A stretch of DNA of 64,000 nucleotides, from the sequence record PZ583741.1, one strand, 5' to 3'. Origin of the DNA: a phage. The notes below the pieces were generated by a model. That model made no database searches. It was not told the DNA's origin and was given only the letters and a program-made list of their open reading frames with translations. The translations under genes and the position numbers were made by a program. Below are positions 43,432 to 62,662 of this stretch, piece after piece (the stretch's first letter is position 1; each line of letters opens with the position of its first letter).

Positions 43432-43449
43432 TTAGCAAGACGTGCTATT
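43432..43449 (-). promoter_or_regulatory. B cassette motif on minus strand (aatagcacgtcttgctaa)
   Basis: TATATT box downstream on minus strand. Confidence 0.45.
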
Positions 43450-43938
43450 TATCGCAAATTTACCCATAAATCATGGTTACGCGTAACCGATGTAACTCGA
43501 TGTATACCATAGCCACCCGCGAGAAATGATATACGCACTGTTACGCCAATTTACGCAATGGTTACATTAAAATATCTATATATATCAACCTTTTACTCTT
43601 ATTATTATTATTATATATATTACCGTGTATATCATGTAACTACTGTTCTGGAGTGTTCCGGTTATAATTTTTATATTATGTGGATTTATACAGTATTGCG
43701 CGGCACCTATACATATGCACCATCCGTTAAAATAGGTATACACGATATACGCACCATTTACATTGAGCTATAGCTGGGCTTAAGTGGTGAAAAACGTAAC
43801 AAATGGCGATGTCTACACGTAGTTACAAAATTATACGCGTAAACTTGAATCAACGATTGGCAAAACCAATTGGACTACGCGTCGTGCGTAAGGCATCATT
43901 AACTCATCGAAAGCAAACAACAATAGAGAGATAAAGAA
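43440..43938. promoter_or_regulatory. AT-rich divergent control region (copy 1) with (TA)n, (ATT)n and 20-bp element cattgagctatagctgggct
   Basis: About 500 bp without ORFs; element at 43761..43780 contains perfect palindrome agctatagct; paralogous to 61940..62662. Confidence 0.5.
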
Positions 43939-44133
43939 ATGCCATACTTCATCATTAAAGAGAAAAACAACGCACTGTTCGGGGATTGCTACTTTGGAGG
44001 TGAGGCTGGATATACAGTTCACAAATCTGAAGCCGACCGATTCGAGACAAAGGAAGAAGCCAAGTCTGTTCTGACCGGATATTTCACTGAGGAAGATTTG
44101 AAAGCTGTTAAGATTGTCAAAATTAAGGATTGA
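43939..44133 (+). CDS. hypothetical small protein
   Basis: 64 aa ORF. Confidence 0.35.
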   Translation: MPYFIIKEKNNALFGDCYFGGEAGYTVHKSEADRFETKEEAKSVLTGYFTEEDLKAVKIVKIKD

Positions 44134-44136
44134 ACC

Positions 44137-45108
44137 ATGACATTTACCGTATACACAAATGATGAGCTAACCAATGAAGCCTATCACGAAGAGCAAGACC
44201 ATATCTCTGGCTCTTCACTTGCTGAGATTCTTGCCACCTCTCCAGCTAAATGGAAGTTTAAGCAGCGCAATAACTCTAGCGCAGCACTTAAGTTTGGCAC
44301 ACTCAGTCACTGCATGATGCTCGAGCGTGAAGTGTTCGATTCAACCTACATGCGAGCAACTGACTTTGACGAAGTGGAAGGATTGATTACAAGCCAAACA
44401 GCCTTATCAGCAGCGCTTAAGAAAGTTGGAGTTTCTGGCACGTCAGGAAAGGGCTATAGCGAGCTCTTAGAGATGATGTACAAGTCTGGTGAGGATTGGC
44501 CTGTTAAATGGTTAATTGATCAGCAGGAGAGCGCTGAGGCGTTAATTAGTGGCAAGGAGCTAGTTACTGCTAAAGATTACGATAAGGTAATCTCAATGCG
44601 TGAGGTTCTGACTAATGTACCGGCATATGATGCGGTGATTAATTCACCTACAGCGCAGAAAGAGCTATCAATCTTTGGTGATATTCTTGGGTGTGGTGTT
44701 AAGGTTCGGCTTGATCACGTGGATGTTGTTGATGGCGTTGTCTATATCCATGACTATAAGACGACCGCAGACGCAAGCCCTCGAGGATTTGGTAAGTCGG
44801 CTTATGACCATGGTTACCTGTGCAAGATGAGCCTTCAGCGTGATTTGTTTGTGAAGGCATTTAGCGAGAAGCGCAAGGTTGTGGTTCGACTCCTGGCGCA
44901 GGAGAAAACTGAACCATACTTACCTATGTGCTACACGCTTACAGATGAGCAACTTCGCATTGGGCGCATTCAGTATCTTGAAGCACTGGCTACATACAAA
45001 CAGTGCAAGGAACTTGATGTGTGGCCTGGTTACAGTAATGGGATTACAGAGCAAGAACTGATGATCCCTGAGTGGGTAAGTAAGCAGTATCAGGAGCTGC
45101 TAAAATAG
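44137..45108 (+). CDS. PD-(D/E)XK family exonuclease
   Basis: 323 aa; N-terminal block matches A ORF 1799..2749; IHDYKT motif. Confidence 0.55.
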   Translation: MTFTVYTNDELTNEAYHEEQDHISGSSLAEILATSPAKWKFKQRNNSSAALKFGTLSHCMMLEREVFDSTYMRATDFDEVEGLITSQTALSAALKKVGVSGTSGKGYSELLEMMYKSGEDWPVKWLIDQQESAEALISGKELVTAKDYDKVISMREVLTNVPAYDAVINSPTAQKELSIFGDILGCGVKVRLDHVDVVDGVVYIHDYKTTADASPRGFGKSAYDHGYLCKMSLQRDLFVKAFSEKRKVVVRLLAQEKTEPYLPMCYTLTDEQLRIGRIQYLEALATYKQCKELDVWPGYSNGITEQELMIPEWVSKQYQELLK

Positions 45109-45122
45109 CACGAATTGCTAAA
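45105..45122 (+). promoter_or_regulatory. B cassette motif ATAGCACGAATTGCTAAA
   Basis: Then ggggtattatcacccc and catcgaaactaaaaac. Confidence 0.5.
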
Positions 45123-45185
45123 GACAAAATTAACTGGTGGGGTATTATCACCCCATCGAAACTAAAAACAGAAGTGAGAGATTAA

Positions 45186-45335
45186 ATGAAAGTATACATC
45201 GTAACCAGTCAAGAAATGTATGATTATGATACGAATGTTGAAGCCGTGTTTTTTGATGAAGAGCTTGCTAATGGATTTGTTTATAAATCAGAACTTGAAG
45301 GATTGCAGATTTTAGAGATGGAGGTAACCGAGTAA
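45186..45335 (+). CDS. hypothetical small protein (49 aa)
   Basis: After cassette; TAATG overlap with next gene. Confidence 0.3.
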   Translation: MKVYIVTSQEMYDYDTNVEAVFFDEELANGFVYKSELEGLQILEMEVTE

Positions 45336-45985
45336 TGAAAACTTCAGAACAAAACAAGCAAGTATTGAAGTCGTTATTTGAAGCTAAATCAAAGTTTGCA
45401 AAGGCTGAAAAGTCAAAGCAGAACTCACACCTGAAGAACAAATACGCAACTCTGGAAGACGTACTAGCGGCTGTAGAACCCGGCCTTGCAGATAGTGGTC
45501 TGGTTTTATTCCAGGGAATGCTTGATGATGAAGCCACGACTCGGATTAAAGTTGAGACAACTATCTATCATGCAGAGTCTGGAGAGTGGGTTAGCTTCCT
45601 GACAATCGTCCCAATCAGCAAGCAAGATGCCCAAGGTTATGGTTCTTCTCTGACTTATGCTCGACGTTACGCAATTACAGCAGCATTGGGGCTGAGCCAG
45701 ACGGATGATGATGGTCAGCTGGCAGTTAAAGGAATTAACTCATTTAAGAAGGACTTGGCTAAGTGCAATACCCTTGATGACCTGCGTGATGTTTACAAGG
45801 AAGCAAAACAGTCTCTTGACTCTGCTGGGTGGTTAGTGCTTGAGCCTCATATCATTGAGCGAAAAGCTGAGATTCAGGCTAATGCAACTAACGGATTCAA
45901 TCCAGCAAAACCTAAGCAGGTTGCACAAAAAACTGTTCAAGAAGAAAGAATTGAAGTACAATCTCAAGAAATCGATACGTTCTAA
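45335..45985 (+). CDS. putative single-strand annealing protein (Erf-like, family uncertain)
   Basis: 216 aa; DAQGYGSSLTYARRYAITAALGLSQTDDDGQ shared with A paralog. Confidence 0.5.
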   Translation: MKTSEQNKQVLKSLFEAKSKFAKAEKSKQNSHLKNKYATLEDVLAAVEPGLADSGLVLFQGMLDDEATTRIKVETTIYHAESGEWVSFLTIVPISKQDAQGYGSSLTYARRYAITAALGLSQTDDDGQLAVKGINSFKKDLAKCNTLDDLRDVYKEAKQSLDSAGWLVLEPHIIERKAEIQANATNGFNPAKPKQVAQKTVQEERIEVQSQEIDTF

Positions 45986-46025
45986 TTTAACGGGGCTTCG
46001 GCCCCAACATTAAGAGAGAAATGAA

Positions 46026-46454
46026 ATGAGTCATGTAATCACTGGTGTTATCCGTCGCGCTCCGTTTACCAAAGAAGGTCAGAATGCCAATGGCACCTGG
46101 AAGATGTACGCAGTTGATTTGAGTGAGCGATATAAGGATAAAGATGGTCAGGCACATTATTCGAATTACCGCGCAGTCTTCTTCGCGAAGGAGTCAATGC
46201 TAGATTGGTACAACGAGGCATTTCAAGAGGGTAAAGTTGTTAGCGTTAGCGCTGAAAGTTTATCTGTAGATGTTCGTGACAAAGATGGTAAAACATACGT
46301 AACCATTAACATGAATAACCCTCGACTAGAGTTTAGTCAGCGTGGCGATGCAGTTAGCAATCCACAACAACATCAACATCAGCCAAAACAGCAGCAGCAG
46401 CAGCAACGACAACCGCAGCAGCAACAGAACCTCGAGGACGACATTCCATTCTGA
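46026..46454 (+). CDS. ssb: single-stranded DNA-binding protein with Q-rich linker
   Basis: 142 aa; C-terminal LEDDIPF; (CAG/CAA)n tract 46370..46430. Confidence 0.7.
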   Translation: MSHVITGVIRRAPFTKEGQNANGTWKMYAVDLSERYKDKDGQAHYSNYRAVFFAKESMLDWYNEAFQEGKVVSVSAESLSVDVRDKDGKTYVTINMNNPRLEFSQRGDAVSNPQQHQHQPKQQQQQQRQPQQQQNLEDDIPF

Positions 46455-46463
46455 TAAAAGAAA

Positions 46464-46486
46464 AGGCCCCTTTCGGGGCCTTTTTT
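46464..46486. terminator. bidirectional terminator (A-run, aggcccc-tttc-ggggcct, T-run)
   Basis: Read directly; between convergent ssb and tailspike. Confidence 0.8.
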
Positions 46487-49034
46487 ACGAAGCTGTATTT
46501 ACCTGAAGATATGCACCATTAGTGGCACCAAACCATGCGTAAGCAGATCCGTAAGTTGTTGGGTTATCATTTAAGATGAAGTCACCCGCTCTAATTACAC
46601 ACTTTGCTCCATATCTATCAGTTGGCCTTGCACTAAAACCATAATCAACATATCTAAAACCAACCTTCGTTACGTTATCGTTAAGAGGAAAAATATCCGA
46701 GAAGCTAGAAGACCTAAAGTCATTGTTCCTGAAAACGCCTCCAGTAAAGTTATCCATGTCAAACATAGTGTTCAAGCTAGCTCCAACAGTATTCCTGAAC
46801 TTGTTACCTTCGTATGTTGGAGAGATTACTTCATAGCCAACCCTCAACTGAATAAATCCTCCATCAAGAATATTGTCCTTAATTGTTGGGTACTGACCGC
46901 CGATTGATAATGCCCCGAAGCCAGGTGTAAATTTGCAACTATTATTACTAAATATAGCACCAATCCATGACTGATTAGTAAGGTATGGTGCTTTCGTGTC
47001 GGTCATCGTGTTTCCGGTGATAATTAATCCATTCTTAATCTGTGTGCCCTCCTGGTAGCCCTGAATCGCCACGCCACCACCAATCATAATGTTGTTGGAT
47101 ATAATAATGTTGCTCAACCCCTCATTAACACCCCAATCACTTTCTGCATCATTTGTTATCAGTAAGTAGTGAGAAGAAGCCCTACCAGTAGCGTCCGTAG
47201 TTATAATGCTTGTATTGCCTTTGCATATAACATTGTTTGCCGCAAAAACCTCAACAAATATACCAGCACCTTCGTAGTAGTTATCCGTAACCGTTACGTT
47301 ATTGCCAGCCGGGGTTATCCTTGACTGGATAGATATTGGATAATAGAACTTGTTGGCGTGAGCATAAGACCTTTTGCTTTTTTCGGATATTGCATAATCC
47401 TCCGCGAAAGTGTGCCATGCCCTTCCTGACTGTTTTGTTGTGTTTCCGATAAACTCTGAGTAGTCACAGTTTCTTGTGAGTAAGCAGTAGTTAGTGTTGT
47501 ATCTGAAGTTTGAATCTCTAAGAGATACTAATGCATTAGATAAACCATTAAGAGCATCGGCATTAACAAAGGCCCTCGAGGCATTAACCTCCATACGCTC
47601 AATCAAAACTGATGCGCACCCTTCAACCATAAAGCCAAACCAGTCTTCTCTTGGTTTATGCGTTGTATCTAATGGTTGGATTGAGTAATCTGAAAAGTCA
47701 CTATTCCAGTTGAGGCCGCTAGCTTTAAGTGTGCAATTCTTTGCGCCGAAAACAACCCTCTCAGGTGATGAACTTCCAGATATATCGATCTCAACATCAT
47801 TATTGGCAAAAATATCAACATTAAGGCCATTAAGGAAGAATGCCGTCTTCCTTAATACGTTGTACTTATCATTGTACTGAATATCAGTGGAGAATGAGAC
47901 CTTCAGTCTTCCTGCGCTAATCCTTACCTTTCTGTTTGTGTTGTGACCAAGATTTATACACGCCATCACTGATGCGTTTGATTCATTAACTCCAGAAACA
48001 TCATGACCAGCCCATTCAGTATGGATATCATCGATCCCTCCTGTAAACCTAACCCAGCAACCATTCCCCCCTGGTGATGGCTCACCAACTCCTCCAAGGA
48101 AGTCTGAAAGCGTGGAATAAGTACCATCAAATGGAACCGTTGGGCTAAAAACAGTAATCCCGTTATGTTCGCCCTTACTTACTGATGGACTCCAGTAGAA
48201 CAGACCGCCACCAGAGTTTGATCCAGAAATGTAAGACCTTACATTTGCTAAAGTTTTATTCTCAGTTGGTTGTTGGATTAACTCGTAAATAGAATCAAAA
48301 CCAGCATCACCACTGGAAGCCAAAGGAATCCAACCTTGAGGGCCGATGCCACCAGTGTCTTCCGGGGTAGAGCCAGCTGGAACAACTTTAGGAAGTTCAC
48401 CGCCCCACAGGTAGGATGATGCGTAACCATTTGATATATTTATTACCTGCTGGCTTTTTGATTCTACTGTTACTCCATCCTGAAATGTGCCAATTAGAGC
48501 CCCAGAAACAGAAGCGGCACTTGCTGCAGCATGTTGTGCAGATACAGAAGCTGATGATGCGCTCAATTCTGATGATTGCTTGTCCTGGGACACCTGAGCG
48601 GCATCACTAGAAACTTGAGCGCCAATAGAAACAACCTCACCATGCTGTGTGTTTACCTGGGTTACCTTTGATTCAAAATCCGCAAAGTCAAAGTTGTTAA
48701 AAGCATCGACTGCATCGGCGACTTCTGTTTCTCGCGACTGATAGTATCGAAGAGTCTCGGCAACATCCTGAGCTAAACCCTGAACACTAATACCATCATG
48801 TGCAAGGATTGCATAACCAGTGCCATCGGGAACGGTTTCACCATTAGGGTTGTATACAGCCATTGATGTGTCGCTGGTGATTTCAGAGATAGTGTAAATC
48901 TGTACTGGCTCCGTTTTAAACACTAAAGTAGCACCAACGCGAATAAGTGTTAGTGGCATGGTCCATTGAGTGCCAACTCCAGTAACCTGACCGTTCGCTG
49001 CTAAACTGGCAGTGCCAGTATCATAAATTGCCAT
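46485..49034 (-). CDS. tailspike / receptor-binding protein with beta-helix-like repeats
   Basis: 849 aa from ATG (track start 49064 is a GTG); repetitive N/G/T-rich C-terminal region. Confidence 0.6.
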   Translation of the reverse strand: MAIYDTGTASLAANGQVTGVGTQWTMPLTLIRVGATLVFKTEPVQIYTISEITSDTSMAVYNPNGETVPDGTGYAILAHDGISVQGLAQDVAETLRYYQSRETEVADAVDAFNNFDFADFESKVTQVNTQHGEVVSIGAQVSSDAAQVSQDKQSSELSASSASVSAQHAAASAASVSGALIGTFQDGVTVESKSQQVINISNGYASSYLWGGELPKVVPAGSTPEDTGGIGPQGWIPLASSGDAGFDSIYELIQQPTENKTLANVRSYISGSNSGGGLFYWSPSVSKGEHNGITVFSPTVPFDGTYSTLSDFLGGVGEPSPGGNGCWVRFTGGIDDIHTEWAGHDVSGVNESNASVMACINLGHNTNRKVRISAGRLKVSFSTDIQYNDKYNVLRKTAFFLNGLNVDIFANNDVEIDISGSSSPERVVFGAKNCTLKASGLNWNSDFSDYSIQPLDTTHKPREDWFGFMVEGCASVLIERMEVNASRAFVNADALNGLSNALVSLRDSNFRYNTNYCLLTRNCDYSEFIGNTTKQSGRAWHTFAEDYAISEKSKRSYAHANKFYYPISIQSRITPAGNNVTVTDNYYEGAGIFVEVFAANNVICKGNTSIITTDATGRASSHYLLITNDAESDWGVNEGLSNIIISNNIMIGGGVAIQGYQEGTQIKNGLIITGNTMTDTKAPYLTNQSWIGAIFSNNSCKFTPGFGALSIGGQYPTIKDNILDGGFIQLRVGYEVISPTYEGNKFRNTVGASLNTMFDMDNFTGGVFRNNDFRSSSFSDIFPLNDNVTKVGFRYVDYGFSARPTDRYGAKCVIRAGDFILNDNPTTYGSAYAWFGATNGAYLQVNTAS

Positions 49035-49057
49035 TGTGTAAAGTCTCCATTTGTAAA

Positions 49058-49075
49058 GTAGCACTAATTGCTAAG
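49058..49075. promoter_or_regulatory. cassette-like palindrome gtagcactaattgctaag upstream of tailspike
   Basis: Matches consensus on the plus strand but lies 5' of a minus-strand gene; orientation ambiguous. Confidence 0.35.
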
Positions 49076-49106
49076 TTGGATTGTATCATCTTTCAGGCAT
49101 AAAAAA

Positions 49107-49123
49107 ACCTCCCGAAGGAGGTT
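49107..49123 (-). terminator. terminator for minus strand (aacctcc-ttcg-ggaggtt plus T-run)
   Basis: Plus strand shows aaaaaa + aacctcccgaaggaggtt. Confidence 0.65.
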
Positions 49124-50045
49124 AGTCTAGTAATTCGCTTGCTTTGTATATTCGCTTTCTTATGCCTGACTTGAAAAAATTATCATCATTTGGCATTACC
49201 ACATCAAGATTGCGATCGTCAGCAACAGCGAGTAAATCAAAATCGTGGCGAGTACAAGCGACGCGTAACTTGTAGTTTCTAAGCGCATAAGCAACCATTT
49301 CCATGTTGTAACTGGAGTAGCAAACAAGCACGCAGCGGTTGCCAGTAGCAAGATGAACGCGAATACCATCAATCCAATTATCGACCATATAAGCGTACTC
49401 ATCATTCTTAAAGGTACCAATAACAGCAATAGACTGGCGAGTATAATCTTTTGCAGCATAACTAACATCTCCCTCTTCATTGATAAACATTACATTGCAC
49501 ATCTCATCGGACAACCCATCACTATATGCCATAAAACACGGTATTGCGTGTATTAGTTCGCCTGACTTCGTCCTGCCAACATCAAAACCAAACTCGCTGT
49601 AAATACCCTCGTATATACTGAGAGGAGTTGATTCTACTCTTTCCGTCCTTTCCATTATCTCTAAGCATCTTTCGTGGTCAATCTGCGCGCCCATTTTGTA
49701 TGGTGATGTTCTTGAAGCTCTTTTGTTTGCTTTTGATATAACATCTACTGGAACTAGATTCAGCCAATCACCAAGCGTATCTATTGTTTCGCTATAACTC
49801 ATTCCCGAGCATTTCATAACCCAGCCAACACCAGAATCGTTGCCGCACTGGTTACATATTGCTGCGCCATTTCCCTTTTCCTGACCTAACTCATCAGTGA
49901 AGCGAAACCTATCCTTGCCAAAGCAGTGGGGGCACGGACCATGCTTCTTGCTGAGATTCTCCTTTGTCCATCCAAGGTGCGATGAGTAGAATTCGCCCCA
50001 CATTCCACTCATTTTTGCTATCACTTCATTTTTATCATGGTGCAT
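49122..50045 (-). CDS. DNA primase (zinc-ribbon plus TOPRIM-like)
   Basis: 307 aa; CPHCFG...CNQCG; homolog of A 5708..6658. Confidence 0.65.
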   Translation of the reverse strand: MHHDKNEVIAKMSGMWGEFYSSHLGWTKENLSKKHGPCPHCFGKDRFRFTDELGQEKGNGAAICNQCGNDSGVGWVMKCSGMSYSETIDTLGDWLNLVPVDVISKANKRASRTSPYKMGAQIDHERCLEIMERTERVESTPLSIYEGIYSEFGFDVGRTKSGELIHAIPCFMAYSDGLSDEMCNVMFINEEGDVSYAAKDYTRQSIAVIGTFKNDEYAYMVDNWIDGIRVHLATGNRCVLVCYSSYNMEMVAYALRNYKLRVACTRHDFDLLAVADDRNLDVVMPNDDNFFKSGIRKRIYKASELLD

Positions 50046-50104
50046 ATCAATCTATCTCTTAGTAAATAAAAAAAGGATGTACCGATTATGGCACATCCAA
50101 TTAT

Positions 50105-50578
50105 TTACTCTTTAGCTTTTCGTGCTGCTTCGTTGGCTGCCTTAATTTTGCGCCATGAGCGACACTCTGGTTTAGTTGCTAGCTCAGCCTCAGTAACAAC
50201 ACGCAGCATATGACGCTTCTTGCAACGTAGAGTTAGCGGTTTCCCGTTACCGTCGAATTGCAGATCTGGTCGGCAGAATGTAGCGCGAAAACCTTCTCCA
50301 TTTCGCTTATAGTAGTTGTGCGACAACTGAGCGCCGCGCGCAGAAATCATCCCACGCTTAAACCATTCTTCTACAGCCTGAGGTGTCACCTTTAACTGCT
50401 TTGCGATATTTGCCTTTGTGCCGAAGAAATCAAGAACAATCTCCAGTCGCGCACGTAAACCCGCCCTTACCTCATCTTTCAAAACGTAGTAACCTGAAGG
50501 TCGTTTACGTTGCTTCTTATCTTGTGTGCGGACGGTCCCGTTATTGCCGTTAATTGTTCGCTTGTCAACTGCATTCAT
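50105..50578 (-). CDS. putative HTH DNA-binding protein
   Basis: Basic protein with HTH-like segment NIAKQLKVTPQAVEEWFKRG; start at M13 (gagg RBS). Confidence 0.3.
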   Translation of the reverse strand: MNAVDKRTINGNNGTVRTQDKKQRKRPSGYYVLKDEVRAGLRARLEIVLDFFGTKANIAKQLKVTPQAVEEWFKRGMISARGAQLSHNYYKRNGEGFRATFCRPDLQFDGNGKPLTLRCKKRHMLRVVTEAELATKPECRSWRKIKAANEAARKAKE

Positions 50579-50679
50579 TTCATTACCTCGATAGCATTTT
50601 TTGTTAAAAGTCATTCTGATTTGATGGTATTATTGTACTCAATTAAACGCTACAAGACAATTTTTATAGGAATTTAGAT

Positions 50680-53947: not shown

Positions 53948-54065
53948 AAATCGTAGACAAAGAGATGTTTGAAATTGCGCAGGTTTACGCGATTGATGCC
54001 GTCAAGAATAAATCAGAATGGTCATGGATGTGTGCTAAAGAATACCTAAAAATGGCTTGCGGATT

Positions 54066-54314: not shown

Positions 54315-54316
54315 GT

Positions 54317-54568: not shown

Positions 54569-54651
54569 CTAGCCTAATACTAGTAGGATCGTCACCACTG
54601 TTTAGCTTTACTATCTTATACTTTATCTCAATGAATTAAGGAACTTATATA

Positions 54652-55782: not shown

Positions 55783-55800
55783 ATAGCACATTTTGTTAAT
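55783..55800 (+). promoter_or_regulatory. degenerate B cassette motif (atagcacattttgttaat)
   Basis: Read directly; weaker match. Confidence 0.3.
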
Positions 55801-55856
55801 AAAGCCTCAAAGGATTGAGGCAAAATGAATAAACGATAACGAGATTAGGAGTTATA

Positions 55857-56887: not shown

Positions 56888-56889
56888 AG
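56872..56889 (+). promoter_or_regulatory. B cassette motif ATAGCACGAATTGCTAAA
   Basis: Then catcgaaacgagatg leader. Confidence 0.5.
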
Positions 56890-56955
56890 ATAATAATAAA
56901 AACTTAGTTATCATTAACACATCGAAACGAGATGAAACAAAAGAGGAAGAACAAA

Positions 56956-57132
56956 ATGACTAAAATGATTTATTGCACCAAAAACAACTCCAAGACGCTG
57001 CCATTTACAGTTAACCAGCCGTACAATGCAGAGTATCAAGGTGACGGATACTACAAGATTTATGGCGACGATATGACGTGGATTTTAGCGCCGATTGATG
57101 GTTCGCTGGTTGAATTTATTATCGCAGACTAG
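56956..57132 (+). CDS. hypothetical small protein
   Basis: ATG 56956 after aagaggaag. Confidence 0.35.
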   Translation: MTKMIYCTKNNSKTLPFTVNQPYNAEYQGDGYYKIYGDDMTWILAPIDGSLVEFIIAD

Positions 57133-57156
57133 CGCATCTAAAACATAGCTTTACAA

Positions 57157-57186
57157 GTGGGGGGCCTTTTGGCTCCCCTTTTTTAT
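57157..57186 (+). terminator. rho-independent terminator (ggggggcc-tttt-ggctcccc plus T-run)
   Basis: Read directly. Confidence 0.6.
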
Positions 57187-57263
57187 GCTTCTTTTCCGAG
57201 CGGTGCTAATGTATCATTCTTTTACTAACTTAAACATTGACAAATACACAAATGGAGGATCAC

Positions 57264-57479
57264 ATGAGGGAAGTAATCAACGCTGCTACGGCGTCAACTG
57301 GAGGGGCTGCGGTAACTGGCGCGGCAACTGGTCAAATGACTATAGCAATAATCAGCCTTATCGCTCTAATCATTTTTGGTGCGTGGGGAGCTTACTGGAA
57401 GTTTAAAGATAGCCAGGCTATTCGGCGAGCGCTTGAGTCTGGCGACCTAAAAACAGCAATCAATATAAGGAGCAAATAA
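57264..57479 (+). CDS. holin (probable pinholin)
   Basis: 71 aa from ATG 57264 (ggagga RBS); TM segment MTIAIISLIALIIFGAWGAYW; directly upstream of SAR endolysin. Confidence 0.45.
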   Translation: MREVINAATASTGGAAVTGAATGQMTIAIISLIALIIFGAWGAYWKFKDSQAIRRALESGDLKTAINIRSK

Positions 57480-57965
57480 ATGAAGCAAAAGATGCTAATT
57501 AGCGCGGCTACGGCTGCGGCAATATACATCGCAGCGCCGCTTATTGAGCTCGTTGAGGGCGTGGAGAACAAGCCTTACATGGACATTGCCGGAATCCCTA
57601 CAGTTTGTTCCGGTATTACTGGTCCTGACGTTGTTTGGGGTAAGACTTACAGCAACAGGGAGTGCCGTAACCTGCTGGAGAAGCACATCCAGATTCATGC
57701 TAAGTATGTTCAGGATGCAGTTACCTACCCAATCGCACCGCAGACAAGGGCGGCGTTAATCAGCTTTAGCTATAATGTTGGCGGCTCAGCGATGAGGAAG
57801 TCTACGGCTGTAAGGTTAATCAACCAGGGTAAAGTGGAGCAAGGTTGTAAGGCTTTGAGCCTTTGGAATAAAGCTACCGTTAATGGCAAGAAGGTTGTGG
57901 TTAAGGGCTTGGTAAACCGCAGGAATGAGGAGATTAAGTTATGCTTAAGCGGATTGCAGCGTTAG
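57480..57965 (+). CDS. endolysin, lysozyme-like with N-terminal SAR signal-anchor
   Basis: 161 aa; hydrophobic N-terminus MLISAATAAAIYIAAPLI then E-x8-D-x5-T catalytic spacing. Confidence 0.6.
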   Translation: MKQKMLISAATAAAIYIAAPLIELVEGVENKPYMDIAGIPTVCSGITGPDVVWGKTYSNRECRNLLEKHIQIHAKYVQDAVTYPIAPQTRAALISFSYNVGGSAMRKSTAVRLINQGKVEQGCKALSLWNKATVNGKKVVVKGLVNRRNEEIKLCLSGLQR

Positions 57966-58330
57966 TAATGTGCGTAGCTTTATATGGATGTTCAGCAACA
58001 TCTGCTCTGACCGGATTAATTGGAAGTAAGCCTGAAGTTACGGCTCAGGCTGGTGCCGAGAACAATAAGGTTGGTGTTGGGTTAACGAACAAGGTTGACT
58101 CCAGTAACTCCAGCGATGCCACAGTTAAGGATTCCAGCGTGGGCTCACTTGATAGTTCTAGCGGGAAAAAGACTGCTGATAATTCGATTAAGGCCTCTAC
58201 AATCACTGCCGAAAAGATTGAGATTACCAATAACGACTCATCAGCGCTTCCGTGGATTGGAACAGGAGCGATGGGTTTGCTGGTTCTGATTCTCCTTTCC
58301 TTAATCTTAAGACGTAAAAAAGCCTCCTAA
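57941..58330 (+). CDS. unimolecular spanin (N-terminal lipoprotein signal, C-terminal TM)
   Basis: 129 aa; lipobox LYGC|S; C-terminal WIGTGAMGLLVLILLSLILRRKK; overlaps endolysin 3' end. Confidence 0.55.
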   Translation: MLKRIAALVMCVALYGCSATSALTGLIGSKPEVTAQAGAENNKVGVGLTNKVDSSNSSDATVKDSSVGSLDSSSGKKTADNSIKASTITAEKIEITNNDSSALPWIGTGAMGLLVLILLSLILRRKKAS

Positions 58331-58340
58331 TGGAGGCTAT
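58321..58340. terminator. bidirectional terminator (agcctcc-taat-ggaggct with A-run and T-run)
   Basis: Read directly; between convergent spanin and 58345 ORF. Confidence 0.65.
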
Positions 58341-58344
58341 ATTT

Positions 58345-58680
58345 TTAGCTAAATAACTCTTCGTCAGTCATTGTCCCTATGTTCATCATCTCTTTTATGT
58401 ACTGGCTTTCATACCCGTTAAGCGCCTCAAAGTTGAAACAAAATGGCCTCTTCAAGCTACCCTTACTAACAAACTCACCGCACTTGCCATCAATGTATCC
58501 GGCACTCAACATCTTCGCGCAGAACTCCTTTGAGGCAGCGCTGCAAAACTCTCTATGTGACAATCCTGCCGCCTTACTGAATCTCTGAGAGTCCTTATGT
58601 TGGTAGATGAATCGCGCCAAATGCTGGCGCGTAAAGTATGAATACGACTCACAGAACTTAAATATATCGAGTATGAACAT
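58345..58680 (-). CDS. hypothetical protein
   Basis: 111 aa ORF. Confidence 0.35.
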   Translation of the reverse strand: MFILDIFKFCESYSYFTRQHLARFIYQHKDSQRFSKAAGLSHREFCSAASKEFCAKMLSAGYIDGKCGEFVSKGSLKRPFCFNFEALNGYESQYIKEMMNIGTMTDEELFS

Positions 58681-58772
58681 ATTCAGCTCCAGATTATGTC
58701 TAATACAAATATAAGCAGTGAGATTAAAATAAGGAACCCCAAAATTACAAGAAGTATTGTTTCAAGCATAAA

Positions 58773-60356
58773 TCACCCCAGCAGTCGCGGATTAATGTAA
58801 ACTTTATCACCAATCAGGCACGTATAGTTTTTCTCATCAAGCATTGGCAGTAAGTGATCTTTAATCTTCGTCATCACTCCAGCCTGAGCCTCGAACGGCT
58901 TAACATTGCGAGCAGCTTCATACAATGAGCGAATACCAACTACGCCCTTACCGTTTTTGCCTTGCTTGATCAGAATATCAATCAGCTTATTCATCTCGGC
59001 ATTGTCGCCAGCGTGACCAGCTGCGTTAGCAGATGACAAATAAGTCTTGCTCAGTTCCTGAAACATAATAACAGCTTCTTGCATCGTATCTAGCTCGATC
59101 TCTCTAGACTTACGCGGACTCCCGCCATTTGGGTTAAACCAGTTACGCACGGTATGAAGAACCGCCGCAATTCGGATAGCCTGCTTGTCGAATTTACCCA
59201 GGGCGCCGCGCAACATTGTGTGTGAATACTTACCGCCGTCAGCAAGGTGAGGTTCCATTTCCTGACGCGCGCGGTTGAGATACTTCATTGCTGAGTTGCT
59301 CACTGTCAACTTAACATCCTGCTCATTCATTATTTCGTGAACAAGTCGGAAGTAATCAGCCTTCAATGCGCCATCAATTGGCTCGTAAGTTGAATCTCCA
59401 TTTTCATCAACGAATACACGTTCGCCAAGGAATGACTTCTCGCGGACCAAAAGGAAGCGCTCAGATACACCGATACCACGCGCACCAGCGTTCATAATAG
59501 CGTTGATTGTCTCATCCTGCGCAATTACGGAGATACAGCCCATGGCAACGAAGCTCATGTTGTTCTCTGCGTTCGCACGTGCGATAGATACGTTACCAGC
59601 ATCCCATGCTTTAAGCACAAGCTCGCTGTTCGTTTTCTTTGAGCCGTCACCATAGGTCATACCAAGCAGTGAGTTTACACTAGTCGCCTCATCAGAGATG
59701 ACAGCAAAGTTGCCCTGACGGTTGTTTATTCTGGCAAGGCCCTCAGGCGTGGTATCGGACACGGGGAAAACGATATCGCATAGCTTCTCGAGCTTTTCCT
59801 CGAGTTCCTCCTTCTCTTCAAATAGAGAAGCCATCTCTGAAGGAGATTTCTCCTGCTTCATCTCTTTGGATAATGCAGAAAGTTTTGCCATTATTTTCTT
59901 GCGCTCACGCTTACGCACCTCATTCAGTCGCTCAGTCTCAGCAATCATTGGAGCAATTGAAAGTGAGTTGATGGCTGATTTACCAGTCGATGGGGGCTGG
60001 CTTGTTACGACGTACAGCGAGGTTGGTTGCTGAGTCCCGTGATATTCAACAGTAAATCGTCCAAGCATGGCAGCAGAAATACACCCCAGAAAGTGCATGT
60101 ATGCGGAAGACTCTGGAAACTGAACAGAACGGGCAATATTGGCTGACAGCTTACCAACAATATCAACATCATTTCCGAGTGAGATTACAGGATACTTGTC
60201 ATTAGCGGCATCAATCTCGACCGGAGACTTCCAGAATGATTGAGACTGGCGATAGCCATTGGCATTAATGGCGACTCGCAGTGGTGGGAGGTTGTCTGCG
60301 GATGCAATTGCCATAACCTGTTCAACAGATAGTTTATCTTCGTTGAAATCAAACAT
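58773..60356 (-). CDS. P-loop NTPase, putative replication protein
   Basis: 527 aa; Walker A SQPPSTGKSA, Walker B-like FAVISDEA; minus-strand cassette upstream; N- and C-termini shared with 63142..63666. Confidence 0.45.
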   Translation of the reverse strand: MFDFNEDKLSVEQVMAIASADNLPPLRVAINANGYRQSQSFWKSPVEIDAANDKYPVISLGNDVDIVGKLSANIARSVQFPESSAYMHFLGCISAAMLGRFTVEYHGTQQPTSLYVVTSQPPSTGKSAINSLSIAPMIAETERLNEVRKRERKKIMAKLSALSKEMKQEKSPSEMASLFEEKEELEEKLEKLCDIVFPVSDTTPEGLARINNRQGNFAVISDEATSVNSLLGMTYGDGSKKTNSELVLKAWDAGNVSIARANAENNMSFVAMGCISVIAQDETINAIMNAGARGIGVSERFLLVREKSFLGERVFVDENGDSTYEPIDGALKADYFRLVHEIMNEQDVKLTVSNSAMKYLNRARQEMEPHLADGGKYSHTMLRGALGKFDKQAIRIAAVLHTVRNWFNPNGGSPRKSREIELDTMQEAVIMFQELSKTYLSSANAAGHAGDNAEMNKLIDILIKQGKNGKGVVGIRSLYEAARNVKPFEAQAGVMTKIKDHLLPMLDEKNYTCLIGDKVYINPRLLG

Positions 60357-60413
60357 TACTTCTCTCCGTGTTGTTTCTGAGCGGCCATTATATCAACGAC
60401 CGCTTATAATTCA

Positions 60414-60431
60414 TTATCAATTTGTGCTATT
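60414..60431 (-). promoter_or_regulatory. B cassette motif on minus strand, variant (aatagcacaaattgataa)
   Basis: TATAAT box, ggagag RBS and P-loop gene ATG follow on minus strand. Confidence 0.45.
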
Positions 60432-60781
60432 TACAGGTACTGGGCCTCAAAATGGTACGTCTGGCAAAGAGTGTAAAATCCAACATCCTCGCTACGGTAG
60501 AGCTGCCAGGCATTACCATCCTCATCGTAAATGTAACCAGCCGATTGACCTAGTCCAGCGTGAAGGTTCACCTGGTAACGTTTCTCTTCTTTAAAGTCTT
60601 TTTTAACTCCTGATTTATGGTTAACCTTCGTGCAGTAAATAGTTTTGGTCTTAATGTATTTGCCGCGCTCTTCCAGGTTAATCCATTTGCCATCTTTCTT
60701 GATTTGTTCTACACCATCTTTAACTCGAGCTTTGTATAATACGTTATCGTTGCTAATGAAGTTTTTAGTAATCGTTGTCAT
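60431..60781 (-). CDS. hypothetical protein
   Basis: 116 aa after minus-strand cassette. Confidence 0.4.
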   Translation of the reverse strand: MTTITKNFISNDNVLYKARVKDGVEQIKKDGKWINLEERGKYIKTKTIYCTKVNHKSGVKKDFKEEKRYQVNLHAGLGQSAGYIYDEDGNAWQLYRSEDVGFYTLCQTYHFEAQYL

Positions 60782-60844
60782 TTTGTTTGCCTTTTTGTGT
60801 TTCGTTTCGATGAGATGAATATACAGGAAAAGCCCCGAAGGGCT

Positions 60845-60862
60845 TTAGCAATTCGTGCTATT
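60845..60862 (-). promoter_or_regulatory. B cassette motif on minus strand (aatagcacgaattgctaa) followed by hairpin
   Basis: Downstream on minus: gcccttcggggctttt hairpin, then catcgaaacgaaac. Confidence 0.5.
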
Positions 60863-61005
60863 TCGTGCTTTTTCTATCGCCTTGAGCATAATTTCATGAC
60901 TCTCTAGCAAGTCCTCGCGAAACCAGTCTCCGCAGGGCCAGCCCTTTCCGCTGTAAGCACTTATGACCTCAAGGTCGAAATAATTTATCTCAGATGGTAA
61001 TAGCA

Positions 61006-61266
61006 TCACTTCACCTCATCAAAAGTTGCAATTCCAGGGATTACTAGCTTTCGCACCCAGCCATTAATGTCAATACAGCTATTAATTGCAATCCATCCAG
61101 AATCGTGCTTGTGCGGTCGCTCAGCGCCATTAATAACCCATTCGTTCGGGATTGTCTTGCCGTTAATTATTAGCGGCTCTGCGTCGTATACAGAGCCTTT
61201 AACGAAAGGCGTTAAGACTTTCTTGTCGGTACTATTGATAACGTTAGTGCAGATTATTTTAGTCAT
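61006..61266 (-). CDS. hypothetical protein
   Basis: 86 aa ORF. Confidence 0.35.
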   Translation of the reverse strand: MTKIICTNVINSTDKKVLTPFVKGSVYDAEPLIINGKTIPNEWVINGAERPHKHDSGWIAINSCIDINGWVRKLVIPGIATFDEVK

Positions 61267-61450
61267 TTACAACCTCGTACTCACCTTTATAAACAGCGAC
61301 CTCTTCATTCACATTGTTGACAATCACTGCTAAACAAAGAGCACCCAAATACTTTACCACTTCGTACTCGCAGCCCAACGTCAGACAATAGTCCTCACAT
61401 GAACGTCCACTGCAATCTAAATCTTCGAATTTAACTAACTTAATTTTCAT
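61259..61450 (-). CDS. hypothetical protein
   Basis: 63 aa ORF. Confidence 0.3.
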   Translation of the reverse strand: MKIKLVKFEDLDCSGRSCEDYCLTLGCEYEVVKYLGALCLAVIVNNVNEEVAVYKGEYEVVND

Positions 61451-61460
61451 ATCTCAATCC

Positions 61461-61640
61461 TCAAATAAATGGTAAGCATTCAGTGCAGCCGAGGCCGTCA
61501 CAACAGAAAAATTCATCCTCTGACTGGAACTGCTTTGCCAGATCAATATCCAACTTTCCGCGCAACACAAGGTCGGTGTAATCCTCGTTAAGCCCAATCA
61601 GTGCGCATTCGTGACGTAACTCATCTTTATTCTTTTTCAT
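61461..61640 (-). CDS. hypothetical small Cys-containing protein (59 aa)
   Basis: ORF read on minus strand, ends FFCCDGLGCTECLPFI; not in track. Confidence 0.25.
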   Translation of the reverse strand: MKKNKDELRHECALIGLNEDYTDLVLRGKLDIDLAKQFQSEDEFFCCDGLGCTECLPFI

Positions 61641-61939
61641 TTCTCATGGCCCTTTAAATTATGGCGCTTATTCAGAACTTCAACCCATTCTTGCGCGTCT
61701 TTCTCTCTCATGAAGAAGCTTAACTTTGGGTGCTTGTGAAAACCTTTAAGTTCAACAATCCAATGACCACCTTCGTAACTATAACTAACTTTCTTCTCTG
61801 TCATTTCGTTACCTTTTGAGTTTTTTATTATCGACATCTCTTCAACGTACTCGCTACAACTCGGGATTTTACTCCCGGCCCGGCATTCTAACAAAAGGAC
61901 CCGCTCGGCGCTTTGGTGGGTGAGGTAACGCTTCCTCAC
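61637..61939 (-). CDS. hypothetical protein (start uncertain)
   Basis: 100 aa track ORF; 5' part overlaps a GC-rich structured stretch, so an internal Met may be the real start. Confidence 0.3.
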   Translation of the reverse strand: MRKRYLTHQSAERVLLLECRAGSKIPSCSEYVEEMSIIKNSKGNEMTEKKVSYSYEGGHWIVELKGFHKHPKLSFFMREKDAQEWVEVLNKRHNLKGHEK

Positions 61940-62662
61940 ATTGCGCGGTAGTATTTACCCTTTTTAGTCTCTTTCGAGAGTGACTCAGAGTCTGCTACCG
62001 TGTCGATGAGATTAAGTATACGCATAGTTAGCCACACTGTCTTTAGCAAAAAGTGCTATTCGTTAGATTTATGGATTGTTGCAGATATTGCAATGATTCA
62101 CATGACTATTGCACATACAGCAATATTGCTTCAGATGCAATGATGTTTTTGATTGTTGCGAAAATTGAAATGAAGTGGAGATTGAGTGAATGAAAGATGG
62201 ATGGACTACCATACAAGTTGATTTTGATCTTGACTGAGCCATTTTCACGCTTACACGTAACCGCTGTAGCGCGATGTAAGCCAACGCCTATCGTTACGCG
62301 AGTTACGCGAAGCTACGCCATGACTTACACTATAAGTGCTTAATATATATATATATCTTCTTTCTATTATTATTATTATTATTAATATTATTGTATGTAA
62401 GTCATGTAACCGGGTGTTCGGCGGTATCTATATGTTTTTTCCTATCAGAATACATTATTTCCATTTTATGCGAGATTTAGCCATTATGGGGCCACCTAGC
62501 TAATTTACCTCGTTACACGCACGACACGAAACTACATTGAGCTATAGCTGGGCTGGTGTGCCATTTCGCGTAACGACCCCCAAAAGTTACCAAAAATTAC
62601 ACTTGACTACATGTGTAAGTCGGGATATGATGGATTCAACTTAAACGAGAGGAGTAATAGAA
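61940..62662. promoter_or_regulatory. AT-rich divergent control region (copy 2) with (TA)n, (ATT)n and 20-bp element cattgagctatagctgggct
   Basis: Element at 62535..62554; (tatt)/(att) run 62361..62390; paralogous to 43440..43938. Confidence 0.5.
62043..62060 (-). promoter_or_regulatory. B cassette motif on minus strand, variant (aatagcactttttgctaa)
   Basis: Reverse complement read directly. Confidence 0.45.

Follow-up and report, generated by a model that had tools for sequence, protein, structure and literature searches.

Two intergenic regions of a T1-like phage, here called regions A and B, are best explained as composites in which outward-facing promoters at the edges enclose one module of ~430 bp. 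The features of that module lead us to propose, with moderate confidence, that its two copies are a pair of replication origins of the iteron and DNA-unwinding-element type. The window, which is the whole stretch of 64,000 nucleotides analyzed (sequence record PZ583741.1), is two phage genomes concatenated. The preliminary description correctly assigned both regions to genome B, a T1-like siphovirus (Drexlerviridae) of 46,222 bp at 17652-63873; the window wraps, with 17652-17778 identical to 63874-64000. Paired origin-like modules matter here given that no replication origin was identified for the classic T1 family in the literature searched, which did not cover the T1 (2004) and Rtp (2006) genome papers. 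The hedged original reading, origins and/or early promoter-operator regions, is supported by computation, and the shared part favors its origin half because the promoters lie at the edges, iteron and unwinding-element anatomy lies between them, and purifying selection is family-wide.

Organization of the two regions

In both regions the module sits between divergent promoters and keeps one order: inverted TTACRCGTAAC, four TACGC-type cores, AT core, TCATGTAAC, 20-mer, and TTAC copies. Region A has the following parts, with strand where one is assigned:

43427..43449 (-): leftward promoter element, one copy of the 21-nt repeat (TAGCAC-N4-TTGCTAA on the - strand)
43475..43508: left arm, a perfect 14-bp inverted repeat GGTTACGCGTAACC (43475-43488), then tandem 10-bp CGATGTAAC / CGATGTATAC
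43530..43567 (+): iteron-like array of four copies (TATACGC, GTTACGC, TTTACGC, GTTACAT), period 10-10-11 bp
43568..43631: AT-rich core with (TA)n and (TTA)5, second least stable 60-mer of genome B
43632..43640 (-): TCATGTAAC, an inverted TTAC-type copy forming the right boundary of the core, kept in every A and B copy
43759..43780: conserved 22-mer TACATTGAGCTATAGCTGGGCT with palindrome at 43766-43775, identity 0.91
43795..43842: right-arm TTAC-type copies, CGTAAC (43795-43800), GTTACA (43822-43827) and TACGCGTAA (43834-43842)
43856..43899 (+): rightward promoter-like site, TTGGAC-18-CATCAT (TATAGT in relatives)

Region B has these parts:

62038..62060 (-): leftward promoter element, one copy of the 21-nt repeat, identity 0.94
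62061..62235: pac-like block of GATTGTTGC / TGCAATGAT / ATTGCA repeats, region B only
62251..62280: left arm, inverted TTACACGTAAC, then CGCTGTAGCG / CGATGTAAG units
62293..62330 (+): iteron-like array of four copies (GTTACGC, GTTACGC, GCTACGC, CTTACAC), period 9-10-12 bp
62331..62401: AT-rich core with (TA)7 and (ATT)6, least stable 60-mer of genome B
62402..62410 (-): TCATGTAAC, right boundary of the core
62533..62554: 22-mer as in region A with palindrome at 62540-62549, identity 0.92
62567..62631 (+): right-arm phased copies CGCGTAAC, GTTACC and TTACAC, leading directly into a promoter

Four genes of genome B also enter the argument:

49122-50045: phage primase
50105-50614: phage-encoded Cro-like HTH regulator
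58773..60356 (-): candidate initiator-helicase, DUF3987 (Pfam match), homolog of T1 gp9
63142..63666 (+): truncated DUF3987 paralog that keeps the N-terminal ~57 aa and C-terminal ~78 aa, without the ATPase

The two regions are paralogous, as first proposed, over a wider span than was noted, ~430 bp that extend beyond the 20-mer. Compared by blastn, they are 68% identical over 173 bp (E 4e-9), and the search also finds the 22-mer (E 2e-7) and a left-edge 23-mer (E 3e-5). The shared 20-mer CATTGAGCTATAGCTGGGCT does occur exactly at 43761-43780 and 62535-62554 and is absent elsewhere even with 3 mismatches; 0 occurrences are expected by chance, and shuffles gave no match. Identity at this site in fact reaches 22 nt (43759-43780 and 62533-62554). 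The 10-bp palindrome AGCTATAGCT reported within it is indeed perfect (43766-43775 and 62540-62549), but it is not the conserved unit: among relatives its right half varies (AGCTATGGCT, AGCTATATCT) and TTACATTGAGCTAT is invariant.

Each iteron-like array holds four TACGC-type 6-mers with a 9-12 bp period, invariant cores, and variable spacers. The motif TTACRC is found 6 times in region A against 0.57 expected (P 3e-5) and 8 times in region B against 0.50 expected (P 6e-8), making these the densest TTACRC windows of the genome, with region B the densest. The left-arm block of region A (TRF period 10 at 43483-43504) is invariant in 9 phages and has a counterpart in region B, and the right arm of region B (TRF 10-bp tandem at 62580-62600) is kept in 8 of 9 phages. 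The preliminary description had overlooked these TACGC/TTAC short repeats, the chief origin-like feature, along with the left-edge 21-nt promoter element and the pac-like block confined to region B.

The (TA)n/(ATT)n core spans 60-61 bp, and a spacer of roughly 130 bp separates the core side from the 20-mer. The simple-sequence tracts are where they had been placed, with TRF giving (TTA)5.3 at 43599-43614 and (TAT)9.3 at 62365-62392, and (TA)n runs are readable at about 43576-43586 and 62343-62357. The DNA-unwinding-element analysis suggested earlier was run, and the two cores rank first and second as the least stable duplex of genome B in windows of 40-100 bp (z about 5.6 for core B and about 5.1 for core A, against 3.3 or less for the next segment). 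T1 and Rtp likewise have their two least stable segments at the homologous positions. Although the regions had been said to lack ORFs, mechanical ORFs of 52-71 aa are present in both; what stands is that they bear no coding signature: variation across relatives is not enriched at their third positions (p 0.5-0.87), in contrast to the real genes on either side (p 1e-6 and 6e-4).

Conservation of the module

Both copies are syntenic in T1, Rtp, and at least 9 other phages. Core identity is 0.97 in region A and 0.91 in region B, compared with 0.70 and 0.60 at third codon positions and 0.69 and 0.53 in the variable spacers. Conservation of the core and 20-mer is close to that of first and second codon positions. 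Alignment of these relatives indicates that core and 20-mer are under purifying selection and that regions A and B are ancient, strongly conserved copies of one module. An Rfam search of the regions returned no match at E<=1. The term "microsatellite-like" does not fit the tracts: it implies variability, and they are invariant among relatives rather than polymorphic. The register of the 20-mer is kept as well. From palindrome center to core edge the distance is 130 bp in 9/9 A-type copies and 123-134 bp in B-type copies (134 in region B), even though the intervening spacer does not align between A and B, and the distance from the 20-mer to the promoters is not fixed (135 vs 88 bp). In the B copy of Rtp, the segment of iterons and core resembles that of A (83% over 123 bp, E 1e-33), which points to sequence exchange between module copies.

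These comparisons bear on whether the modules are merely duplicated selfish or relic sequence without function, such as a MITE-like insertion. The presence of two scattered copies, each containing inverted repeats and simple-sequence tracts, would suit such an element, but the positions are syntenic in all of these phages, module blocks are better conserved than third codon positions, and tract lengths are invariant, unlike neutral microsatellites. We regard this explanation as very improbable, already contradicted by the conservation data.

Promoters and transcriptional control

The divergent arrangement of the gene blocks holds up, with ORF orientation and outward-facing promoter-like sites at both edges in agreement. 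On the left, each region ends in one of 20 dispersed copies of a 21-nt repeat. This intergenic repeat of T1-like phages, aaATAGCACnnnTTGnTAAAA, was described previously without an assigned function (PMC11447400); here it is promoter-associated and lies outside the shared module. Its spacing to the -10 is fixed at 21 nt, which suggests an activator site centered near -42, a role not proposed in that study (PMC11447400). In region A the repeat, with identity of 0.91 across 8 phages, is followed by a -10 (TATATT, 43410-43405) and would drive the Rha-like/lipoprotein block; in region B the -10 is TATACT (62020-62015) and the predicted targets are small genes and the DUF3987 helicase. On the right, an inverted repeat (ATTGG-N5-CCAAT, center near -43) precedes the TTGGAC of region A, downstream of which lie a 64-aa gene, exoVIII, Erf, and SSB, and region B has a near-consensus sigma-70 promoter (TTGACT-17-TATGAT, 62603-62631). 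GC skew turns at regions A and B and likewise at a third divergent junction of genome B at ~50.6 kb, which has no module; skew therefore follows transcription and carries no information on origins.

This promoter arrangement raises the possibility that the modules are transcriptional control hubs, in which the TTAC-type repeats and 20-mer are operators of a phage or host regulator timing the divergent promoters, with no replication start, and the AT core is an UP-element, bending region, or IHF-binding region. Besides the outward-facing sites, the last TTACAC of region B abuts the -35 of the near-consensus promoter, an exact IHF consensus (TATCAACCTTTTA, 43583) lies in the region A core and is kept in all A copies, the phage encodes the Cro-like regulator, and base-for-base conservation of the core fits sequence-specific recognition. 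However, the iteron arrays and core are 150-300 bp from either promoter, the 20-mer is spaced to the core and not to the promoters, the dispersed promoters use a 21-nt repeat that is absent inside the module, and the IHF site is not common to region B. The module also tracks the DUF3987 gene across lineages, including phages in which it directly precedes the replication operon, and extreme duplex instability beside phased short repeats is a classic origin signature. On this evidence we judge a purely transcriptional role unlikely, though still a serious contender.

Region B and packaging

The pac-like block has an identity of 0.89 over 62061-62165 and contains ATTGCA 4 times in region B against 0.22 expected. 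Its motifs also occur around the pac end (position 1) of the T1 record, and several GenBank records begin 40-90 bp to its right. It is conceivable that terminase or the exoVIII/Erf recombination system recognizes both modules, one serving as a primary and the other as a secondary pac-like or break site from which concatemers form. The adjoining record starts, the position of region A immediately upstream of exoVIII-Erf-SSB, and the exchange between copies are in keeping with this. The GATTGTTGC/TGCAATGAT repeats, though, are absent from the shared module, two papers give a single pac region for T1-like phages (PMC11447400, PMC7718038), and repeat type follows the helicase gene and not terminase, as the comparison of genome A with Segz_1 below shows. 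A packaging or recombination entry role is thus quite improbable.

The DUF3987 helicase and repeat type

Returning to the origin reading, the preliminary description had named the adjacent Rha-like and P-loop proteins as possible binders. Of the two, the P-loop (DUF3987) protein makes a good candidate and the Rha-like protein a poor one, because the latter is missing from T1 and Rtp, which carry the same modules. The structural model of the DUF3987 protein, a confident one (pLDDT 89.5), has only MCM helicases as its best PDB matches and predicts an MCM-like AAA+ fold with a C-terminal domain of winged-helix topology; no sequence similarity to solved chains, including SaPI Reps, was detectable. 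DUF3987 has been classified with the SF6 replicative helicases that carry a C-terminal winged HTH (PMC4889955), and helicase activity has been demonstrated for one member (PMC11724360). The truncated paralog, which is the second gene transcribed rightward from region B, occurs in DTL, EC3a, Sf12, and L006, and T1 and Rtp lack it. It may be a modulator of the module rather than a core part.

Repeat type changes together with helicase type in related phages. Genome A of the window and Segz_1, a relative outside Drexlerviridae, are ~90% identical except for a cassette at window 7098-9786 that is exactly the DUF3987 gene, two small ORFs, and a repeat/AT-core region. Their DUF3987 proteins are 22% identical and their repeats wholly different (TTTACCGG against GGATAAA), while their terminase DNA is about 93% identical. 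In L031, GGTAACA occurs five times with a 10-11 bp period next to a core with z 5.5, and in L030, a (CAA)12 tract surrounded by ten copies of CTTACA immediately precedes a DUF3987-primase-helicase operon. From these sequence comparisons we infer a link between helicase and module.

Proposed mechanism

The origin reading draws on the shared architecture, TTACRC enrichment, duplex instability, purifying selection, and 20-mer register, together with helicase co-inheritance, the distant lineages, a candidate protein, SaPI and SPP1 precedents, and copy exchange. Under this proposal, the MCM-like DUF3987 helicase, or a co-inherited protein, would recognize the TTAC(G/A)C repeats, which are phased by about one helical turn left of the core and recur inverted on its right, through the C-terminal winged-helix domain. 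Binding on both sides would melt the (TA)n/(ATT)n core, the least stable DNA of the genome, where the helicase could load itself, with the phage primase priming and host polymerase III extending. The 20-mer may be an auxiliary protein-binding site held about 130 bp (12-13 turns) from the core. The two putative origins would be 18.5 kb apart, the one in region B, at the conventional genome start, being joined to the pac-like terminase-recognition block.

Several observations count against this scheme. Being degenerate and just 5-7 bp long, the repeats could be regulator operators instead of initiator sites, and their strand arrangement around the core is inconsistent between lineages. The core is kept base for base, beyond what a generic unwinding element needs, which may point to a sequence-specific function. 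The helicase gene and region A are separated by 15 kb, Segz_1 has one module only, and the helicase/repeat co-swap could be mere adjacency in a mosaic segment.

Comparison with known systems

In satellite phage P4, ori and crr lie apart and act in cis; they carry the same short repeats, and the C-terminal domain of a primase-helicase binds both. The T1-like genome resembles P4 in having two separated regions with the same short repeats, and the annotation of the T1 primase notes similarity to the P4-family alpha protein. Alpha, however, is a single primase-helicase fusion with a helicase of a different superfamily, and crr, a tandem duplication, has no unwinding core of its own, whereas both T1-like copies have full cores.

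In the lambda ori, an iteron array is followed by an AT-rich unwinding region and, on the far side, a palindromic element. The T1-like modules have the same part order, and flanking transcription could activate the putative origins. Unlike the present case, lambda has iterons of about 19 bp in the O gene, a single copy of the origin, and an initiator, O, that recruits host DnaB through P. The location of the iterons inside a replication gene is noted elsewhere (PMC11447400).

The two origins of the Bacillus phage SPP1, oriL and oriR, share repeated boxes adjoining an AT-rich stretch, and oriL is inside a gene; both T1-like modules, in contrast, are intergenic and flanked by divergent promoters. 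Like our phage, SPP1 is a pac-type headful-packaging siphovirus with two well-separated origins on its map (candidates here), and its origins are 32.1 kb apart (PMC3561973). Its initiator G38P depends on a loader and a helicase that are separate proteins. G38P also differs in not being AAA+ (PMC3561973).

In the origins of Staphylococcus aureus pathogenicity islands (SaPIs), 6-12 iterons of five or six nucleotides stand on either side of an AT-rich center, and a self-loading Rep helicase binds them with its winged-helix CTD (PMC9371898). Here, too, multiple short (5-6 bp) iteron-like repeats flank a central AT-rich region in opposite orientation per side, an AAA+ (MCM-clade) helicase with a C-terminal winged-helix domain, cognate in SaPI, is the modeled candidate, and repeat type and helicase vary together, as origin and helicase do between SaPI elements (PMC9371898). 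The SaPI ori is immediately downstream of rep, whereas here the helicase gene lies ~1.6 kb downstream of region B and 15 kb from region A. Also distinct are the two copies per genome, the invariant simple-sequence tract that forms the core, and the extra conserved 20-mer at a fixed distance in the T1-like modules. On the best reading of these analogies, the modules would be closest to SaPI origins in layout and to SPP1 oriL/oriR in number.

Genomes in the Window

Two phage genomes are joined in the window. Positions 17652-17778 recur exactly at 63874-64000 (family D5 among the repeat families within the window). This repeat sets the record of genome B, a T1-like siphovirus, at 46,222 bp (17652-63873), with the sequence wrapping around from there on; T1 itself is one of the seven classic T phages. 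Genome A (1-17651) is the tail of another phage, approximately 90% identical to Salmonella phage Segz_1. A 78-nt match between the two genomes (16107-16184 and 22217-22294, 82% identical) falls within HNH-type endonuclease-like ORFs and probably marks a homing endonuclease family that is common to unrelated phages and moves between them.

At the gathering threshold, Rfam returned only two matches window-wide, a tRNA and int-alpA, both outside the regions discussed below. The tRNA-Arg (anticodon TCT) lies in genome B at 21087-21164 (+), and tRNA-Arg has been reported from other T1-like phages. The int-alpA sRNA match (42.6 bits; gathering score 35.8) lies in genome A at 12452-12515 (+), directly upstream of an 844-aa ORF (12520-15054) that comparison with Segz_1 identifies as the large terminase; int-alpA is named for a P4-like integrase context and was unexpected in a virulent-type siphovirus. 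In the late region of genome B, GC-hairpin and T-run terminators such as AACCCGCTTCGGCGGGTTTTTTATT occur in five copies (family D6, 24539-35332), often immediately before the GGAGA and ATG of the next gene, a layout that fits the "transcripton" organization suggested for T1.

Anatomy of the Paired Module

The preliminary description had singled out two paralogous, gene-free regions of genome B between divergent gene blocks, each with simple-sequence tracts and an identical 20-mer. Most of this held up. The paralogy is borne out on alignment and reaches far beyond the 20-mer, the flanking gene blocks are divergent for both regions, and the internal mechanical ORFs lack the coding signature that the flanking genes have across relatives. 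The 20-mer occurs twice, with no further site even when three mismatches are allowed and zero matches in shuffles, and its identity extends to 22 nt (family D20). The tracts are real, being recovered by TRF as (TTA)5.3 at 43599-43614 and (TAT)9.3 at 62365-62392. Nine homologs per region from different phages were aligned, followed by all 18 copies jointly, and the joint alignment gave the same ordered skeleton in both copies, listed here from left to right.

Features of regions A and B in genome B
43440-43938: region A, non-coding
61940-62662: region B, non-coding
43427-43449 (A) and 62038-62060 (B), reading leftward: left edge, one copy of the 21-nt repeat TAGCAC-N4-TTGCTAA
62061-62235 (B only): repeat block of GATTGTTGC, TGCAATGAT, and ATTGCA, 175 bp, highly conserved
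Next inward from the left edge: inverted TTACRCGTAAC, in A a perfect 14-bp palindrome, GGTTACGCGTAACC
After the inverted element: two 10-bp CGATGTA-type units
43530-43567 (A): array of four TACGC-type cores, period 10-10-11 bp
62293-62330 (B): array of four TACGC-type cores, period 9-10-12 bp
After the array: AT core of 60-61 bp with (TA)n and (ATT)n
Right boundary of the AT core: TCATGTAAC
Between TCATGTAAC and the 22-mer: spacer, the most variable part, where A and B are unalignable
43761-43780 (A) and 62535-62554 (B): the 20-mer within the 22-mer, then more CGTAAC, GTTAC, and TTACAC copies
Rightward promoter-like site, A: ATTGG-N5-CCAAT, then TTGGAC-18-CATCAT
Rightward promoter-like site, B: TTGACT-17-TATGAT

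The short repeat is clustered in this non-coding DNA well above chance. TTACRC was observed six times in region A and eight times in region B against expectations of 0.57 and 0.50 (P 3e-5 and 6e-8), and the two regions hold the densest TTACRC windows of the genome. In the nine-homolog alignments, the TACGC-type cores are invariant and the intervening spacers variable; the repeats are phased at about one helical turn, with TRF giving periods of 9-10 for the arrays. They lie on the plus strand left of the core, on the minus strand right of it (TCATGTAAC and CGTAAC), and on the plus strand again further right. The adjoining AT-rich DNA has exceptionally low duplex stability: for all window sizes between 40 and 100 bp, the two AT cores rank as the least and second least stable duplexes in genome B (>5 SD), and the third-ranked segment reaches 3.3 SD. 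When 60-mers are ranked over whole genomes, the two lowest stabilities (z > 5) fall on these two sites in T1 and Rtp as well as in genome B. In its anatomy the module corresponds to an iteron-type origin with an unwinding element; it is unusual for this class in that it is present twice, that its simple-sequence core is invariant, and that the 20-mer stands at a fixed distance.

Several other assignments were tried and rejected. A DnaA-dependent oriC would not fit, as there is no exact TTWTNCACA box in the regions and the scattered one-mismatch matches include none in the shared arms beside the core. An exact IHF site is present in region A only, which removes IHF from the shared skeleton. No Rfam match at E<=1 was found in either region and a loopless 10-bp palindrome makes no RNA hairpin, which speaks against a structured RNA. 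Hidden small genes were dismissed because the 52-71-aa mechanical ORFs have no codon-position bias and the longer ORFs of Rtp and EC3a are extensions of a 64-aa gene. GC skew, proposed as a check, proved uninformative as an origin marker: it turns at both regions but also at every other divergent junction, including a module-free one at ~50.6 kb.

Constraint and Register

The tracts had been called microsatellite-like. Cross-phage comparison shows instead that few bases of the region are as strongly constrained, with the AT core more conserved than the third codon positions of neighboring genes, and therefore they are not variable in the manner of microsatellites.

Mean pairwise identity across phages (region A; region B)
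AT core: 0.97; 0.91
20-mer: 0.91; 0.92
Third codon positions, neighboring genes: 0.70; 0.60
Variable spacer: 0.69; 0.53

Seven of nine A-type and five of nine B-type copies have identical (TTA)n/(ATT)n and (TA)n tracts, the remainder showing only a few substitutions or one 3-nt deletion, and core length is 60-61 bp in 17 of the 18 copies. Repeat number is thus near-constant among relatives, which rules out a hypervariable microsatellite or contingency locus. A relic duplication is a less likely explanation of the pair. The palindrome within the 20-mer, singled out in the preliminary description, is not the constrained unit, since its right half differs in four phages and TTACATTGAGCTAT is unchanged. 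We are highly confident that the modules are conserved, functional cis modules that bind protein, the binding itself being predicted.

Measured to the core edge, the 20-mer sits at 130 bp in every one of the nine A copies and at 123-134 bp in the B-type copies; measured to the rightward -10, it sits at 135 bp in region A and at 88 bp in region B. Because the first distance is fixed and the second differs, the 20-mer goes with the core and not with the promoters. The earlier proposal of origins and/or promoter-operators is supported: origin-like anatomy, constraint, and instability favor its first half for the shared part, and promoter-like edges are present. The 20-mer itself was rejected as a promoter or operator, having no convincing -35/-10 pair by eye in addition to its differing promoter distance.

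The main rival to an origin is a transcriptional control hub, in which the repeats would be operators for a regulator of the divergent promoters. The location between divergent promoters, the TTACAC that abuts the -35 in region B, and the IHF consensus in the A core all agree with such a hub. However, the arrays are distant from the promoters, the 20-mer is in register with the core, the module is associated with a helicase gene (see below), and the dispersed promoters of the phage use another element, the 21-nt repeat.

This repeat, TAGCAC-N4-TTGCTAA, is present in 20 copies between 17952 and 62058, in genome B only, and was described earlier with its function given as unknown (PMC11447400). 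All copies but one (49059) are oriented with the local genes.

Examples of the 21-nt repeat
Plus strand: 17952, 18672, 19110, 20166, 24123, 36100, 45106, 53093, 56872
Minus strand: 42688, 43447, 60429, 60860, 62058

A TATAnT hexamer lies exactly 21 nt downstream in 15 of the 20 copies and 19-22 nt downstream in 19. With this spacing, the TAGCA-N5-TGCTA palindrome is centered close to -42, as the sites of class II activators are. A dimeric phage activator acting on the repeat is a candidate, for example the Cro-like HTH protein encoded at 50105-50614. No transcriptome or transcription start site map for Drexlerviridae was found in the literature.

Relatives and the Pac-like Block

Scans of IMG/VR with the flanking proteins and the 20-mer core gave only a handful of loci, and GenBank phage records were used as a result. 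More than 130 Drexlerviridae records are matched by both regions, including those of Rtp-like, DTL, CEB_EC3a, and BEK phages. T1 and Rtp carry the same pair at the same syntenic places, the first between cor/lipoprotein and exoVIII and the second between a leftward early-type block and the conventional genome start. The AT cores lie at about 43.6 and 62.4 kb in the window and near 30.0 and 0.2 kb in T1. Both phages have modules without a Rha-like protein at this position, which disposes of the suggestion that the Rha-like protein is the binder. The B copy of Rtp holds an A-like segment of iterons and core (83% over 123 bp, E 1e-33), from which we conclude that the copies exchange sequence.

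In several relatives, ORFs of 115-143 aa have been annotated across the region A 20-mer and the rightward promoter: rtp46 of Rtp (record L009, 28260-28658), Ec3a_41 of EC3a (record L001, 2900-3331), and others in AugustePiccard, BEK2, and BEK1-1. By alignment, the real gene there is a conserved 64-aa ORF (43939-44133) with its own ribosome-binding site, and the upstream part is non-coding.

The block at 62061-62235 is the part of region B that has a separate interpretation. The T1 record has a 2.8-kb terminal repeat, and its start, the pac end, falls within the homologous region-B-specific block; the records of Rao1, ZL19, and EC3a start 40-90 bp to its right. To judge from sequence, this block is probably the pac or small-terminase recognition site. 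That the modules are themselves entry sites for packaging or recombination is a less likely reading.

A Helicase That Varies with the Repeat

Genome B encodes at 58773-60356 (-) a protein that matches Pfam DUF3987 and is 57% identical to T1 gp9. DUF3987 proteins have been described as SF6 replicative helicases with a C-terminal winged HTH (PMC4889955), and helicase activity has been shown for one member (PMC11724360). Searching PDB chains with the protein sequence gave nothing significant, SaPI Reps included. A fold search with the predicted structure (pLDDT 89.5), on the other hand, found that the best matches among solved structures were all MCM helicases (E down to 5e-6); the last ~75 residues are predicted to form an H-E-H-H-E-E pattern that is winged-helix-like.

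Genome A offers an informative comparison. Its single module, at 9215-9786, has the layout seen in genome B but is built on a different repeat (TTTACCGG/CCGGTAAA), and Segz_1 has the same layout with yet another repeat, GGATAAA plus tandem TATCTCAAAAATC. The two phages are ~84-93% identical except for an unalignable cassette (7098-9786 in the window) consisting of just the DUF3987 gene, a pair of small ORFs, and the region with the repeats and AT core, and their DUF3987 proteins are only 22% identical. Repeat type therefore varies with the helicase between these phages, as origin specificity does in SaPIs, a pattern that mere adjacency could also yield.

Two further lineages were found through DUF3987 homologs. 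Record L031 has an AT core (z=5.5) beside five copies of GGTAACA with a period of 10-11 bp, and record L030 has about ten CTTACA copies around (CAA)12, directly upstream of a DUF3987-primase-helicase-exonuclease operon. The strand arrangement of the repeats in both differs from that in the window. The third locus found in this way, L032, gave no information: its contig ends ~250 bp upstream of the intergenic region, and that region has no short repeat with at least three copies. The (CAA)12 of the distant phage contig L030 is perfect (5390-5425) and central in its repeat-flanked intergenic region, the place taken by (ATT)5-6 in Rtp-like phages. Two of the examined lineages share the presence of a simple-sequence tract at the center.

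A 174-aa ORF at 63142-63666 (+), the second gene to the right of region B, is a DUF3987 paralog with the middle deleted and no ATPase. Its N-terminal ~57 aa are 53% identical to the helicase and its C-terminal winged-helix-like ~78 aa 62% identical. DTL, EC3a, Sf12, and a metagenomic contig have the paralog, and T1 and Rtp lack it. It could compete with the helicase for the same DNA sites.

Significance

No published description of the paired modules was found, and earlier mention in the original T1 and Rtp genome papers is possible. For phage TLS, iterons were stated to be absent from the whole genome and the origin was given as unknown (PMC11447400), and in SU57 an origin was sought and not found (PMC7718038). 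The modules make the origin of the T1 family directly testable. If they are origins, there would be a candidate recognition site for the DUF3987 (MCM-like) helicases, which are very common in phages, self-loading helicases could be studied in a tractable E. coli system, a simple rule would locate Drexlerviridae origins (the two least stable 60-mers, each between TTAC repeats), and the ORF annotations that cross the 20-mer, such as rtp46 and Ec3a_41, would need correction.

Comparison with Known Origins

We consider the chance that replication starts at the modules to be about even. The mechanism that we propose has paired replication origins, at which the DUF3987 helicase would work together with the primase of the phage. 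The helicase would be the protein that binds the repeats, and the AT core would melt for initiation. The outward promoters possibly aid origin activation, and in region B the origin would be fused to pac.

By analogy with the DnaA-trio trinucleotide arrays of bacterial oriC, the simple-sequence tract might serve the MCM-like helicase as a single-strand loading track with sequence specificity rather than being a passive unwinding element. This reading draws on the (CAA)12 of L030, at the equivalent place between TTACA repeats. It also draws on the near-invariance of TTATTATTATTATTA, for which 18 copies from both paralogs and 12 phages show one substitution, in the B copy of BEK2. On this reading, the two copies and the 20-mer at its fixed distance could act jointly, for example through looping as in the ori/crr of P4. 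We regard a loading track as improbable; if true, it would amount to a new origin grammar for phages with DUF3987 helicases.

The proposal of paired origins draws on the anatomy of the modules and on two known systems. The closest described layout is the SaPI origin, in which 6-12 penta- or hexanucleotide iterons flank an AT-rich center, with the two sides in opposite orientation, and are recognized by the winged-helix CTD of Rep, an MCM-clade helicase that loads itself (PMC9371898). The SaPI origin is immediately downstream of rep, whereas region B lies upstream of the DUF3987 gene, separated from its 5' end by ~1.6 kb that holds small genes, and region A is 15 kb away from that gene. Because of this difference in position relative to the helicase gene, we propose that the modules work like a SaPI origin without being members of that class. 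For the presence of two distant origins in a pac-type siphovirus, oriL and oriR of SPP1 provide the precedent (PMC3561973).
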